Origin: Escherichia phage vB_EcoS-716R1
DNA length: 17,893 nucleotides
Sequence record: ON470621.1
Strand: one strand, 5' to 3'
The notes under the pieces are model-generated. The model saw nothing but the letters and a program-made list of their open reading frames with translations, made no database searches and was not told the DNA's origin. The translations under genes and the position numbers were made by a program. Of this stretch, positions 12,525-17,893 are shown piece by piece. Position 1 is the first letter of the stretch; the number at the start of each line of letters is the position of its first letter.

Positions 12525-12644
12525 ATGTACTCCAATGAAGAAGCCACCGACATAGCCTCCTCCATTCATAGTGAAACTATTTTCATCTACCCAGTAATGA
12601 ATTCTTTGTAGAGTTGTGATCAATACAACTCACTAATGGAGAGG

Positions 12645-12681
12645 CTTGTCCAACACGTTGGACAAGTTTCCTGTTTGATTT
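12645..12681 (+). terminator. Perfect 10-bp inverted repeat followed by a T-rich run (terminator or operator)
   Basis: CTTGTCCAAC-AC-GTTGGACAAG followed on the plus strand by TTTCCTGTTTGATTT, in the divergent region between HNH and the plus-strand small ORF/bor unit. Confidence 0.3.
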
Positions 12682-12746
12682 ACTGGACACTATAGAAGGA
12701 CAGAATGCCTTCATCACTCGAATAACATCAATTAAGGAGGTTCAAC

Positions 12747-12869
12747 ATGTTTCATTCCACAAATCATCAGGCTGTAATTATGGCTGCATCAGCTTGTGCC
12801 ACAGACCTTTTCCGCTTCACTTTGAGCCTGATTCATTTCTACCTGACCGGCTCGCCTCTATCTTTTTAA
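12747..12869 (+). CDS. Small ORF (40 aa) with near-consensus Shine-Dalgarno
   Basis: TAAGGAGG, 6-nt spacer, then ATG. Encodes MFHSTNHQAVIMAASACATDLFRFTLSLIHFYLTGSPLSF. Same strand as and upstream of bor. Confidence 0.35.
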   Translation: MFHSTNHQAVIMAASACATDLFRFTLSLIHFYLTGSPLSF

Positions 12870-13049
12870 TCCCCGCTTTATCCAAATTGCATTGCCAGAA
12901 TGCCGACAACAGACTGACATTCAAATCCTGACTACCTCCAATAGGCTGAGCATCCACCTATATAGTTTTAATTTTCATCAATCCATTTAACTATCGTTTA
13001 ATTGTTGTCACATAGGATTCTGCCGTTTTTAACAATGCAGGATAATAAG

Positions 13050-13343
13050 ATGAAAAAAATGTTGTTTTCTGCCGCTCTGGCAATGCTTATTACAGGATGT
13101 GCTCAACAGACGTTTACTGTTGGAAACAAACCGACAGCAGTAACACCAAAGGAAACCATCACCCATCATTTCTTCGTTTCGGGAATTGGACAGGAGAAAA
13201 CTGTTGATGCAGCCAAAATTTGTGGCGGCGCAGAAAATGTTGTTAAAACAGAAACCCAGCAAACATTCGTAAATGGATTTCTCGGTTTTATTACTTTAGG
13301 CATTTATACTCCACTGGAAGCGCGTGTGTATTGCTCACAATAA
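13050..13343 (+). CDS. bor: Bor/Iss-family outer-membrane lipoprotein
   Basis: MKKMLFSAALAMLITGCAQQTFTV...ETITHHFFVSGIGQ...VDAAKICGGAENVVKTETQQTFVNG...IYTPLEARVYCSQ is a near-match to lambda Bor as I remember it, with an LITGC lipobox. Convergent with Rz, as in lambda. AGGA Shine-Dalgarno before the ATG. Confidence 0.9.
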   Translation: MKKMLFSAALAMLITGCAQQTFTVGNKPTAVTPKETITHHFFVSGIGQEKTVDAAKICGGAENVVKTETQQTFVNGFLGFITLGIYTPLEARVYCSQ

Positions 13344-13374
13344 TTGCATGAGTTGCCCATCGATATGGGCAGCT

Positions 13375-13836
13375 CTATCTGCACTGCTCATTAATATACT
13401 TCTGGGTTCCTTCCAGTTGTTTTTGCATTGTGATCAGCCTCTCTCTGAGGGTGAAATAATCCCGTTCAGCGGTGTCTGCCAGTCGGGGGCTGGTTGCATT
13501 ATCCACGCCGGAGGCGGTGGTGGCTTCACGCACTGACTGACAGACTGCTTTGATGTGCAACCGACGACGACCAGCGGCAACATCAGCGCGCAGAGTTTCA
13601 TTTTCAGCTTTCGCATTGGCTAATTCTCTCGAGTACTTTGCATCGAGTGCAGCAACATCACGCTGACGCTGCTGCATGTCAGCGATAGTGGCGATCGCCT
13701 GCTTCAGCTCACTGACTTTTTTATCACGCTGTTCTTTGTAGGCGATGGCGTTATCACGGTAATGATTGACCGCCCACGACAGGCAGACGATGATGCAGAT
13801 AACCAAAGCATAAATAATCGCGGCGACTCTGCTCAC
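13375..13836 (-). CDS. Rz: Spanin inner-membrane subunit Rz
   Basis: Very close to lambda Rz ([29 protein letters not shown]...[63 protein letters not shown]). Probable GTG start at 13836 overlapping the endolysin stop. Confidence 0.9.
13434..13616 (-). CDS. Rz1: Spanin outer-membrane lipoprotein Rz1, embedded in Rz in the +1 frame
   Basis: [59 protein letters not shown] closely matches lambda Rz1, including the VVGC lipobox and the penta-proline stretch. Confidence 0.85.
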
Positions 13837-14366
13837 TGCTCTATCCCCCAACAGGCTAATGCGCTTTCCTGGTCACGACGAATAACCTGTCCATAGCAGT
13901 TATTTGAACGTATGCGGCAATCGCGCCCACCATCTTTTATCCACCAGCGAATCGCCTCGCATGCGCCCTTACGATCACCGGCATTCAGCCGCTTATAAAA
14001 CGTCGACGGGAAACACTTACCGGGGCCAATGTTATAGGGACAGAATGACGCTATACCCGCTTTTTGTGGTTCGGTCAGTAGTACTTTAATATTGCGCTCC
14101 ACCCATGCCAGCGCCTTATCACGCTCAATGGCGTTGACCTGGTCGCATTTTTCCTTCGACAGTTTCATACCGGGAAAAACGGGTTTTCCATCCACCATCG
14201 TGGCACCCCGACAGATGGTCCAGATGCCGGACCCATCGCGGTATGCCGTTGTGTGGTTACCTTCTTTTTCATCCAGAAACTGGTCGAGAATATCAGGCGC
14301 GGGCGCACCGACGGCAATCAGTGCCAGAACGGCAGCCGACAGGCCGTATCTGATTTTTGCGTTCAT
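13833..14366 (-). CDS. SAR endolysin (T4-lysozyme-like, GH24)
   Basis: The N-terminus [18 protein letters not shown] is a weakly hydrophobic Gly/Ala-rich signal-anchor-release segment. It is followed by E...D...T catalytic spacing ([19 protein letters not shown]) of T4-type lysozymes. Confidence 0.85.
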
Positions 14367-14429: not shown

Positions 14430-14780
14430 TTAAGGTTGTGATTCCGGAGGAGTCTTCAGAGAACCAGTAATTCTTCCCGGTAGCTTTCCTTTGTAGGTTA
14501 TCCATACATTCTGCGCCTCTAAAATTACGGGGCGCTTTTCCGGCGACTGCTCATCCCCTTCACATAACCCGGCAGCAACATCCAGGAAGACCTGTCTGAT
14601 ACTCATTCTGGCTGCTGCCTCATAAAACTCCAGCGCGGCACCTTCAACACGGTCCAGCGAGATGTCCAGGTCAAAAATTTCACCGTCAAAGCGTTTTTTG
14701 TCCCGTAACGCTAAAGTTACCGTAACTTTATTCTCAAAATTGCGGATCCCTTTCACAATCAGTTCATAGTTTTGAGTCAT
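14430..14780 (-). CDS. Hypothetical protein (116 aa) inserted between holin and endolysin
   Basis: The ATG at 14780 is 4 nt after the holin TAA and preceded by GGAGAG. No transmembrane segment or motif I recognise; acidic, soluble-looking. A 63-nt gap separates it from the endolysin start. Confidence 0.6.
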   Translation of the reverse strand: MTQNYELIVKGIRNFENKVTVTLALRDKKRFDGEIFDLDISLDRVEGAALEFYEAAARMSIRQVFLDVAAGLCEGDEQSPEKRPVILEAQNVWITYKGKLPGRITGSLKTPPESQP

Positions 14781-14784
14781 TGAA

Positions 14785-15000
14785 TTACTCTCCCCGTGCC
14801 GCCTTACGACGGTCCTCTCTGATTTTGAAATACAGGTTAGTCAGATATGTCAGCAGCCCAAACAGCAGACTCCCCAGCACGCCTATTGCCGCCCACTGAG
14901 ACGGGGAAACCCTGTCCAGCAACTGCAGGAACCAGTAGCCCGTTCCCACCGCTGACGTGGTGTATGACACACCTGTTGTGATTTTTTCCATCTGGTCCAT
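14785..15000 (-). CDS. Pinholin, S21 class, with dual-start motif
   Basis: [71 protein letters not shown] closely matches phage 21 S as I remember it. There are two in-frame ATGs (M1, M4) for antiholin/holin, two transmembrane segments, and GGAG upstream. The track ORF extends upstream from a GTG. Confidence 0.85.
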
Positions 15001-15307
15001 ACCCCGTCTCCCGTTATCCGGAAGCTGACAACAATAAAAAAGCCACCAGTTAACTACTGATGGCTCTGATAACTCATGCAAGCGTCTCAGACGATCCACT
15101 GACACTACCGGTGAGTTTAACGATACCTTCCATTTGACTGGCTCACTTTTTATGATGATGCCGGTGTATTTATCTCCAGCACCAGACTTTCTATCTCAAC
15201 GCCATACGTTGCATTTTTGGTAATATCCGTCAGCGTCAGTGCATTTAGTCCCACTGCCAGACCGTCTTTTATGGTCTGGAATGCCGGGCCAGTACGATGA
15301 CGTAGTA

Positions 15308-15496
15308 TCACTCCGGCTCAGTTGCACCACTGACCACCACATCACCTTCTGCTGCAATCGCCTGCATCAGGGTATAAGGGGTTATGGCCACCGGACTACC
15401 AAACGGCTGCCAGCCCTCTTTCAGTTTATGTGTCAGCTTTTCCGCAAGATCTGACGGCGGCGCCGCCCTGACAACATCATAGTGTTTAAATGCCAT
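15308..15496 (-). CDS. Conserved lambdoid-prophage hypothetical protein (DUF1737-like) upstream of the holin
   Basis: 62-67 aa ORF (MAFKHYDVVRAAPPSDLAEKLTHKLKEGWQPFGSPVAITPYTLMQAIAAEGDVVVSGATEPE). The family assignment is from memory. The start is ambiguous between the ATG at 15511 and the ATG at 15496. Confidence 0.5.
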   Translation of the reverse strand: MAFKHYDVVRAAPPSDLAEKLTHKLKEGWQPFGSPVAITPYTLMQAIAAEGDVVVSGATEPE

Positions 15497-15756
15497 GGTT
15501 CTTTCCACCATCTGAAAAATAATTCTTTAAAATACCAGACATGTAACACAGAAAAAACACAAAACCATACCTTAAATAGAAACCTGATCATCAAGCAGAT
15601 ATGCATGGATAAACTACAAGACGAGATATAAACCACCCTGCATTTAAATAAACAATAAACAACATCAGAAAAATAATTCTGCTCTATGGTTTATATTCAA
15701 AAATATCATTTATACTTTTCAGAACATCACCAGCAAGGCATAAACAAGGAAGCTAA

Positions 15757-16092
15757 ATGAAGTGGATTGTAATTGATACAGTTATCCAGCCATCATGCGG
15801 AATATCTTTTTCAGTCATATGGAGTAAAGTAAAATTAATAATCTGGTATCAATCGGATGCTTTCTTACCTCCTGAAAGTATATTTACACTGACTCACACA
15901 GGTATCATGCTCAATAACAAAGTGCTACCTGTAACCATTTACAACGTAGTACCATTCAATAAAACATTCTGGAATTTAATCAAAAACAGCCAGGAATGCC
16001 CTACAAATACAGATAACGTATTGAATGAATGCTTTAATAACCGTTGCATTCTGCAAATATGTCCTTATGGACTAAAACAACAAAGTCCATAA
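15757..16092 (+). CDS. Hypothetical protein (111 aa) in a low-GC island, opposite strand to the late operon
   Basis: AAGGAAG Shine-Dalgarno 5 nt before the ATG. A 111-codon open frame in very AT-rich DNA is unlikely by chance because stop codons are AT-rich. Cys-containing C-terminus ([16 protein letters not shown]); no recognisable family. Confidence 0.45.
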
Positions 16093-16109
16093 GGAGTTTA
16101 CTCACATCT

Positions 16110-16320
16110 GACAAAATCAATATAAACAGCCCCTCCGGAGAGGGGCTGGAGAGTGGCGCTATGTGCCATTGCATGGTGCCGGGTGCCTCCCGGTGAATTC
16201 AGTACCAGCACCTGAATCCGCGATTATCCCATATACCTACTCGCTGATTACCCCTCCGCACAGGGGGATTCACCATGCGAAATTTTTTAACAAACTTCCC
16301 GCCGGCCAGACAATAATCGC
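16110..16320 (-). repeat. Copy 1 of a ~200-bp structured repeat unit (candidate sRNA gene with promoter-like box and intrinsic terminator)
   Basis: Shares with copy 2 the blocks GCATGGTGAATCCCCCT, ATTCAG...CTGAAT stem, ACCGGGAGGC.CC.GGCACCATGC, and an identical hairpin AGCCCCTCTCCGGAGGGGCT followed by a T-rich run (minus sense). Upstream conserved TTGTCTGG...TTTGTTAAAAA box. Confidence 0.6.
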
Positions 16321-16584
16321 CAGCCTGAATTATGAGCAACGTGGCATTTTACGGGAAAACTGTTTTCTGCAGTAAAAAGGCCCGCCGGAGCGAGCCTGGA
16401 AGGATAGCGGTCATGTGATGCCGGTTTCCCGGTAACTCAGCATCGGTATCTGAGTCAACGTTTTCTCTACTGGGTCATTTCCGATACGTTCCGCCTTCCG
16501 GCAGACTTTCATCACGTCAGAAAATATAGCACCCTGAGTAACAGGACAGTACTCAGAATTCAGGAAACTGTGACACATCCTGCA

Positions 16585-16790
16585 CAGAAAAGCCCCTCCG
16601 GAGAGGGGCTGAAGTATAGCCTAATTTCTGTCTGTCGCATGGTGCCAGGGGCCTCCCGGTAAATTCAGCCTGTCTACTGAATTTGCATGTTCTCTGGATC
16701 ATACACTTTGCCAGATGCCCCGCCGCTGAGGGGGATTCACCATGCGATGTAATTTTTAACAAATTCTCCGGCAGCCAGACAATCATCAAG
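16585..16790 (-). repeat. Copy 2 of the same structured repeat unit
   Basis: Same conserved blocks and the identical 20-nt hairpin as copy 1. The internal region diverges with indels, while the ATTCAG/CTGAAT stem is kept with a different loop. Confidence 0.6.
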
Positions 16791-16967
16791 CTGTGGAATT
16801 GTGAGGTATTTAAAAATTTCAACGGGTAACTGATACCCTGCTAATCGCCTGATGCTTTCTTTTTCAGCAACGGGAAAGCAACAACCACACACCCGCCACC
16901 AAAACACCATCAGACAGCACCGACATTATCCGGCTGCTGAAGTCCACCATCACCACCAGAAACAACA

Positions 16968-17025
16968 GGAGTGCAACCACAGCTGCTTAGAAGGCAATTG
17001 CTCTGCCCGGCTGAGCTAACAACGC
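16968..17025 (-). other. Degenerate tRNA-Arg(UCU)-like remnant (D-arm and anticodon arm only)
   Basis: Minus sense TTAGCTCAGCCGGGCAGAGCAATTGCCTTCTAAGCAGC resembles the 5' half of an argU-type tRNA (GCTC/GAGC D-stem, CTTCTAA anticodon loop). No T-arm and no complementary acceptor 3' strand follow. Confidence 0.3.
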
Positions 17026-17125: not shown

Positions 17126-17201
17126 TGGTGGCCCTTGCTGGATTTGAACCAGCGACCTGGCGATTATGAGTCGCTCGCTCTCACCACTGAGCTAAAGGGC
17201 C
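17126..17201 (-). tRNA. tRNA with CAU anticodon, most like the minor isoleucine tRNA (ileX/ileZ type)
   Basis: Minus sense GGCCCTTTAGCTCAGTGGTGAGAGCGAGCGACTCATAATCGCCAGGTCGCTGGTTCAAATCCAGCAAGGGCCACCA folds as a cloverleaf (7-bp acceptor GGCCCTT/AAGGGCC, GCTC/GAGC D-stem, GCTGG/CCAGC T-stem, encoded CCA). Overall similarity is to E. coli ileX rather than to a Met tRNA, judged from memory. Confidence 0.8.
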
Positions 17202-17344: not shown

Positions 17345-17893
17345 TTACCTAGTTACCTTTTTTAACTGCCGCTCAGCCCATGCTTCTTCAATATCAAACC
17401 GGGTCACCAGCGCATCATAGAATTTCTTAACTGTTTTTTCCCATGACGCGCGTGTTATCTGGTTTGTCACCTCGCATATAGCATTAAATGTCTCCGTTGA
17501 TGGTAGTCTTTCATAGCCACGACCACCACAACGCTGGCAGTCTCTGATAACAGGCATACCACGTTTTACCGACTCTTCACGATGAATGGCGACACCACGC
17601 CCACGGCAATCCTTACAGGCGGTGGAAACCTCACCCTTTCCGCCACACTCCGGACAGGCAACTTTTACCACCTCCCTGACTTTTTTCCATTCTTCCCAGT
17701 AAGACGAATACACACCTTTCGTACACTTTGCCCATACCGGCGGCTTACCATCCGGATACTGGACCTTGTTTGTAAAAACTACGCTTTCAATAAATTTTTC
17801 CCCATAGCAACAAGGGCACTGCTTTTTACTCGCTGCGCTGCGGGCATAATCCTCAAAAGCGTACGAATGCGTATTTTCATGAAAGGAGATCAC
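17345..17893 (-). CDS. Q: Late antiterminator Q (lambda Q family); 5' end beyond the window
   Basis: The C-terminal two thirds align with lambda Q (YAFEDYARSAAS, zinc-finger cysteines CPECGGKG...CKDCRGRG...CQRCGGRGYERLP, WEKTVKKFYDALV, ending KVTR). The ORF is open to the window edge at 17893, so the N-terminus is missing. Confidence 0.85.
   Translation of the reverse strand: MISFHENTHSYAFEDYARSAASKKQCPCCYGEKFIESVVFTNKVQYPDGKPPVWAKCTKGVYSSYWEEWKKVREVVKVACPECGGKGEVSTACKDCRGRGVAIHREESVKRGMPVIRDCQRCGGRGYERLPSTETFNAICEVTNQITRASWEKTVKKFYDALVTRFDIEEAWAERQLKKVTR

Follow-up and report, generated by a model that had tools for sequence, protein, structure and literature searches.

A low-G+C island in the late region of a lambdoid prophage carries iraL, a probable RssB anti-adaptor gene, in a slot adjoining that of stx

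[quoted passage not shown] 2014, mBio, PMC4045071). In two-hybrid and co-purification experiments CFT073 IraL bound the N-terminal domain (NTD) of RssB, whereas IraM binds both RssB domains; in log phase, in LB medium, IraL raised both the level and the half-life of RpoS (~5 min, versus ~2.5 min in the deletion mutant) (PMC4045071). Placed in K-12 under its native promoter (−100 to +33), the gene is also functional, and the 5′ end of its mRNA in CFT073, mapped by 5′ RACE, reads ACATCACCAGCAAGGCATAAACAAGGAAACCA (PMC4045071). Later transcriptome papers recorded iraL mRNA in CFT073 by RNA-seq, with increased levels at 37 °C and in a fur mutant. A second iraL copy in JJ1886 (iraL2) carries a point mutation in the −35 element, the effect of which was left open by the authors (PMC4045071). 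In the same study, iraL was delimited by ≥95% nucleotide identity over the whole CFT073 coding region with no overlap with iraM matches, and its upstream region by ≥96% identity to CFT073 from position −100, together with the mapped start site (PMC4045071).

Mg2+ starvation induces the K-12 homologue IraM (YcgW), which binds to both domains of RssB. In the structure of the IraM–RssB complex (PDB 8TWD), contact cluster I of IraM (I4, I6, W22, K26, and I42) binds the RssB receiver domain at its α4-β5-α5 face, where RpoS is held, while clusters II and III touch the C-terminal domain (CTD) and the linker of RssB (PMC10844676).

We compared with these systems a locus contained in 17,893 nt of DNA from Escherichia phage vB_EcoS-716R1 (ON470621.1), hereafter the window, which represents the late-region end of a lambdoid prophage with its late genes all on the − strand. 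In late-strand order these comprise the Q antiterminator (17893..17345, −; Pfam Antiterm), a tRNA with a CAT anticodon (17201..17126, −; Met according to ARAGORN, Ile in the RefSeq annotation of the identical gene), a small DUF3927 gene (~16980..16864, −; from the RefSeq annotation of an identical sequence), a P21-type holin (15105..14785, −), YdfR/DUF1327 (14780..14430, −), and a lysozyme (14366..13833, −), the last three assigned from the ORF list and Pfam, with Rz also among the late genes. A homologue of the tRNA in a phage record is labelled Ile or Ile2, i.e. a lysidine-modified tRNA. CFT073 and Stx phages have two extra tRNA-Arg genes here, which the window prophage does not have.

Between DUF3927 and the holin, the late strand is interrupted by a stretch of very different composition. 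The initial annotation had described an AT-rich island at 15520–16100, and this description holds: the G+C content of that segment is 32.4%, against 50.2% for the window as a whole, making it the lowest in G+C among all 581-nt segments (the minimum itself starting at 15510). Non-overlapping segments of the same length have a mean G+C of 0.508 (sd 0.028, minimum 0.394), which the island undercuts by ~6.6 sd. Both edges are sharp when followed in 60-nt steps, with G+C falling from 0.53 to 0.33 at ~15490–15520 and rising from 0.35 to 0.58 at ~16090–16130, and the island can therefore be delimited at ~15512–16117 (~32% G+C, no strand assigned). Homology to the flanks of phage Lyz12581Vzw ends at 15497 and returns at 16128. 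The island so defined is made up of a 245-nt upstream region, one gene, and 25 nt downstream, and is bordered by the start codon of a DUF1737 ORF on one side and by the 3′ end of an STnc100-family sRNA copy on the other. A second, milder low-G+C island is present at 12550–13350 (~39–41% G+C); it contains a bor/iss lipoprotein gene (13050–13343, +; named Iss in the RefSeq annotation of the identical sequence), which lies on the strand opposite to the late genes just downstream of Rz and is a classic lambdoid moron.

The two flanks of the main island could both be assigned. On the left, the DUF1737 ORF (67 aa; 15308..15511, −; Pfam PF08410, E = 4e-17) shares 56 of 62 residues with the N-terminus of the 631-aa YjhS protein of phage Stx2_EH1910, and by this match is the N-terminal remnant of a late-operon sialate O-acetylesterase gene of the nanS-p/yjhS type. 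RefSeq marks the ORF as a partial pseudogene within 15150–15511 (−), where it is followed by a 53-aa hypothetical ORF. On the right, an STnc100-family sRNA copy occupies 16118..16306 (−; Rfam RF02076, 132.5 bits, gathering score 47), with its terminator hairpin, found by terminator scan, at 16148..16127 (−), and two further RF02076 copies follow at 16371–16546 and 16582–16775 (−). The repeat units that had been noticed beside the island are these copies, of which two are strong (132.5 and 138 bits) and one degenerate (30 bits, below the gathering score of 47), each closed on the late strand by a G+C-rich terminator hairpin. According to a 2026 preprint, STnc100 is related to the PasD sRNAs found in Stx-type prophages.

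The sole long ORF in the island runs from 15757 to 16092 (+), starts with ATG, and is intact at 111 codons plus stop. It is preceded by a Shine-Dalgarno sequence, AAGGAAG (15746..15752, +; read from the sequence), 4 bases 5′ of the ATG, so that its earlier description as a well-signalled reading frame stands. The orientation reported for it, opposite to the late operon, is likewise correct, since every gene from Q through lysozyme is on the − strand. The ORF has a G+C of 0.339 and a GC3 of 0.32, versus GC3 values of 0.45–0.58 in Q, holin, lysozyme, and Rz.

The product had been described as lacking any recognisable family, and here the initial annotation must be corrected. The protein scores 162 bits against NCBIfam NF007393 (anti-adapter protein IraM; cutoff 121 bits) in a full-length match covering residues 1–110 and profile positions 1–113 of 114. 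Its only significant match in the PDB is 8twd_A, the IraM chain of the IraM–RssB complex (E = 8.7e-32, residues 1–78), and the identical gene is annotated in RefSeq as ‘anti-adapter protein IraM’ (WP_001333560.1). The ORF gave no hit in Pfam-A, even with the E-value limit set at 1. The nearest characterised sequence is CFT073 iraL (L003:33465–33800), with 109 of 111 residues and 332 of 336 bases identical (98.8%, four differences); the two amino acid differences are V25 and I98 here for I25 and T98 in CFT073. Identity remains at 98% over a 631-nt alignment to CFT073 that includes the island with its 245-nt upstream region, while K-12 iraM is only 63% identical in protein and 71% in DNA. With 98.8% coding identity to CFT073 iraL and 71% to K-12 iraM, the gene falls within the published coding-region definition of iraL, and with 98% upstream identity, including one substitution inside the candidate −35 hexamer, it also falls within the upstream one. 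By homology, then, the island ORF is iraL, a member of the IraM/IraL/RssC family of RssB anti-adaptors, and so a gene already known, characterised experimentally and annotated in RefSeq. A spurious reading frame in AT-rich DNA was also considered, and is ruled out by the homology, by conservation within the family, and by the published experiments.

The locus is widespread. Of 5426 complete E. coli genomes, 1429 contain at least 80% of an 851-nt query that covers the island (window positions 15400–16250), and three deposited records of E. coli phages or prophages match 2.3 kb around the locus with 100% identity.

Homology to CFT073 also locates the start of transcription. Positions 15724–15755 agree with the CFT073 RACE sequence at 30 of 32 bases; the two mismatches fall in or just past the Shine-Dalgarno sequence. 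By homology, the 5′ UTR would thus extend over 15724..15756 (+). A sigma-70-type promoter is placed at 15690..15716 (+) by its position relative to the mapped start, sigma-70 dependence following the CFT073 study (PMC4045071). The −10 element is TATACT (15711–15716); our candidate for the −35 hexamer of the published promoter is 15690–15695, which reads TTTATA here and TTTACA in CFT073, with a 15-bp spacer. The −10 element, the start site, and the Shine-Dalgarno sequence are unchanged relative to CFT073, and one base differs at −1. The iraL promoter escaped a strict sigma-70 consensus scan; the only promoter called nearby, at 15649–15677, was rejected as it does not fit the mapped start site. 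On the + strand past 16092 we found no T-tailed intrinsic terminator, the only hairpin (16127–16148) being the terminator of the convergent sRNA. As the iraL stop and the 3′ end of the first STnc100 copy are 25 nt apart and the genes converge, iraL read-through would be antisense to the sRNA. Independence of the late operon, which had been proposed from orientation, gains support from the homology to a mapped start and from an upstream region 98% identical to the CFT073 promoter, and probably applies to this copy as well.

Taken together, the island is very probably an iraL cassette of a lambdoid prophage, acting as an RssB anti-adaptor that stabilises RpoS. Both RssB binding and RpoS stabilisation are attributed to the window protein on the strength of its 98%-identical CFT073 counterpart, and the host RssB gene itself is absent from the window.

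The base at 15694 (T here, C in CFT073) is a promoter polymorphism that bears on how far this reading extends to the present copy. G+C around the iraL promoter is 22–30%, and such low G+C is typical of H-NS targets. The gene could thus be pictured as an intact but effectively silent passenger, with a −35 element weakened from TTTACA to TTTATA and a coat of H-NS, and with no current effect on RpoS. The T at 15694 may be the same change as the ‘−35 mutation’ of JJ1886 iraL2, and whether −35-mutated copies are expressed was left open (PMC4045071). Exact 45-mers containing the T allele, however, occur in 284 complete genomes and those containing the C allele in 259–308, and with counts so similar both promoter alleles must be regarded as common. 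An ORF kept intact with two conservative changes only, downstream of an unaltered −10 element, start site, and Shine-Dalgarno sequence, likewise argues against silence, which we consider unlikely, if the most serious of the alternatives. We infer that the T allele would be expressed at a useful level here. The near-equal frequency of the two −35 alleles among complete genomes bears on which strains express IraL.

The upstream region holds one further candidate signal. A pattern search identified a PhoP-box-like direct repeat, TGTTTATTGTTTATTTA, at 15645..15661 (−), with one mismatch to KGTTTA-N5-KGTTTA, situated 63–79 nt upstream of the iraL transcription start. CFT073 shares the repeat base for base, and the more diverged upstream region of the iraM-like gene of Stx2_EH1910 (72% identical) preserves it at the corresponding position, though with another mismatch. 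Such a match also turns up in 3.5% of dinucleotide shuffles of the AT-rich 245-nt upstream region. We regard the repeat as a regulatory lead that is suggestive only, second to and independent of the C-terminal tail described below.

The gene might alternatively be an equivalent of K-12 IraM, i.e. silent in log phase, induced through PhoP/PhoQ on Mg2+ starvation, and binding both RssB domains; the repeat speaks for this, and IraM is indeed the name that RefSeq and NCBIfam give to the ORF. The databases, however, apply that one name to the whole family, and identity to K-12 IraM is far below the 98–99% found for IraL. Alignment of the upstream regions of K-12 iraM and iraL revealed no meaningful similarity, for which reason the two promoters are treated as unrelated. 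IraL has moreover been shown to be active in log phase in LB medium (PMC4045071). Functional equivalence to IraM is accordingly very improbable, and the iraL reading is retained.

At the protein level, residues 1–78 of the iraL product form a barrel and residues 79–111 a tail. In an AlphaFold2 (AF2) model built from a nine-sequence family alignment (mean pLDDT 64), residues 1–78 are predicted to adopt a PmrD-like antiparallel β-barrel, with strands within 2–66 and a helix at 69–77; pLDDT in the N-terminal domain is 66–82, and residues 82–111 fall below 50, with no confident structure. In Foldseek comparisons the model superimposes on IraM of 8TWD with a TM score of 0.85 (rmsd 1.7 Å) and on PmrD (4HN7) with a TM score of 0.77, in line with the predicted membership of the IraM fold. 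That the protein acts like PmrD on another response regulator such as PmrA, as this second match and the homologues' precomputed Pfam label (PF11183, which we take to be the PmrD family) might hint, is extremely improbable given only 12–16% sequence identity to PmrD, 98% identity to a protein shown to bind RssB, and identical RssB-NTD contacts.

Those contacts are fully retained, as all five cluster I residues (I4, I6, W22, K26, and I42) are identical in the window protein. Among the residues that face the RssB CTD and linker, four are changed relative to IraM (T13S, L75I, H63N, and I64V). We infer that this pattern, NTD contacts kept and CTD/linker contacts altered, would fit the NTD-only binding of IraL. 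Because the cluster I residues are all identical and the predicted fold matches that of IraM, the most likely mechanism is occlusion of the RssB face that binds RpoS. In a lysogen, host RNA polymerase with sigma-70 would transcribe iraL from its own promoter, starting at ~15724 and running counter to the silent late operon. The IraL barrel would then bind the receiver (N-terminal) domain of RssB, the ClpXP adaptor, and cover the face used to hold RpoS, so that RpoS would not be handed to ClpXP. The half-life of RpoS would rise, and the general stress regulon would be partly switched on even during exponential growth.

The C-terminal tail is strongly conserved, and no other part of the locus is left without an explanation in the searchable papers. 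The initial annotation had noted only that the product contains cysteine. It carries the motif C81-P-x9-C92-x4-C97-x4-C102-P-Y-G (codons 81–105; 15997–16071, +), recognised in a family alignment of 63 full-length representatives taken at the 50%-identity cluster level; an exhaustive profile search at E up to 0.001 had yielded only 93 cluster representatives. Each of the four tail cysteines is kept in 52–58 of the 63 full-length members, most exceptions appearing to be frameshifted, and the motif C81-P82 ... C92 ... C97 ... C102-P103-[YF]104-G105 is among the best conserved features of the family. Conservation is much lower at two RssB-contact positions, with I4 found in 14 and W22 in 10 of the 63. 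Judged from this alignment, the cysteine tail is a family-wide feature and not one peculiar to the window. In the structural work on IraM the tail was cut at residue 78, as full-length IraM was proteolysed, and was called less conserved and flexible; the IraM–RssB structure paper makes no mention of its cysteines or of zinc (PMC10844676). Among the searchable papers, none was found that bears on the zinc or cysteine chemistry of IraM. We tentatively raise the possibility that the four cysteines constitute a functional metal-binding or redox-sensing module, such as a zinc knuckle or a thiol switch. If so, the tail could govern how stable or active IraL, IraM, and RssC are, tying RpoS proteolysis to metal or oxidative status.

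How the cassette is placed among related phages was resolved by comparison of the Q-to-S interval, in which the gene is present in CFT073 and Stx2_EH1910 and absent from Lyz12581Vzw. In the latter, an ordinary Stx2 phage, homology to the window is found at the 5′ end of nanS-p/DUF1737 (15389–15497) and again at an STnc100-like sRNA (16128–16294); between these flanks lie 232 unrelated bp of 49% G+C without iraL, and stx2AB is located farther on, between the STnc100-like sRNA and the tRNAs. In Stx2_EH1910 the order is Q, a methylase, three tRNAs, stx2A, stx2B, an iraM-like gene on the opposite strand, and yjhS/nanS-p. The stx2AB genes therefore sit between the tRNAs and the sRNA, and iraL between the sRNA and nanS-p/DUF1737. 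With the gene absent in Lyz12581Vzw and both slots filled in Stx2_EH1910, the island represents a true presence/absence cassette beside the stx slot. The statement that it occupies the position where Stx phages carry stx is thus right as to the Q-to-S interval and needs amending as to the slot, which is a distinct one adjoining that of stx. Its interpretation as horizontally acquired cargo is upheld by composition, by orientation, and by presence or absence between conserved flanks; together with the promoter homology, these observations support iraL being a separately transcribed cargo gene (moron) in the Q-to-S interval of a lambdoid prophage.

The iraM-like gene of Stx2_EH1910 (LC567834.1, 3964–4287) is immediately downstream of stx2B, on the opposite strand. 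As stx2AB and this gene are on one phage, toxin and RpoS-stabiliser cargo can be co-inherited.

What had appeared as an unknown cargo gene is therefore a known anti-adaptor, one that would let a prophage raise RpoS in growing host cells, a trait linked to uropathogenic E. coli and Shigella strains. This mainly corrects the record; what it adds is modest, namely the exact placement of the iraL slot with respect to stx, the STnc100 sRNAs, and nanS-p, the near-equal frequency of the two promoter alleles, and the strongly conserved four-cysteine tail.

Set beside the known systems, the locus resembles the polymyxin resistance connector protein PmrD only in fold and in the general scheme of a small protein binding the receiver domain of a response-regulator-type protein; PmrD differs in sequence, in being without the four-cysteine tail, and in its target, which is PmrA and not RssB. 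With K-12 IraM it shares NF007393, the PmrD-like barrel, the RssB-NTD contacts, and the four tail cysteines, while IraM, at 63% amino acid identity, differs in its length (107 aa, without the QQSP end), in having an unrelated promoter, and in adjoining e14 instead of lying in the Q–S interval. The iraM-like gene of Stx2_EH1910 (a Stx2a phage) occupies the same slot, directly upstream of and divergent from nanS-p/DUF1737 and on the opposite strand, and its island, upstream region included, aligns with that of the window at 72% over 1 kb; its product is 73% identical and 107 aa long, and here stx2AB fills the neighbouring slot. As cargo of atypical composition in or beside the late and lysis region, iraL is comparable to stx, to nmpC of DLP12, and to bor/iss, with nmpC and bor also on the opposite strand. 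The parallel with nmpC that had been drawn is a fair analogy, as nmpC lies between quuD and essD, opposite in strand. The products of these genes are unrelated, however, and stx, on the late strand, needs Q read-through, whereas iraL, in its distinct slot, would be served by a sigma-70 promoter of its own. The closest correspondence is with CFT073, which shares the antiterminator, tRNAs, DUF3927, a small partial ORF, iraL on the opposite strand, the DUF1737 fragment, holin, YdfR, and lysozyme. CFT073 differs in its lambda-type head genes, three tRNAs, and an IS200, where the window prophage has a P27-type terminase with HK97-type head genes, iss/bor, and one tRNA. The same neighbourhood combined with different head genes indicates that the cassette moves between mosaic lambdoid phages together with the Q-to-lysis module.
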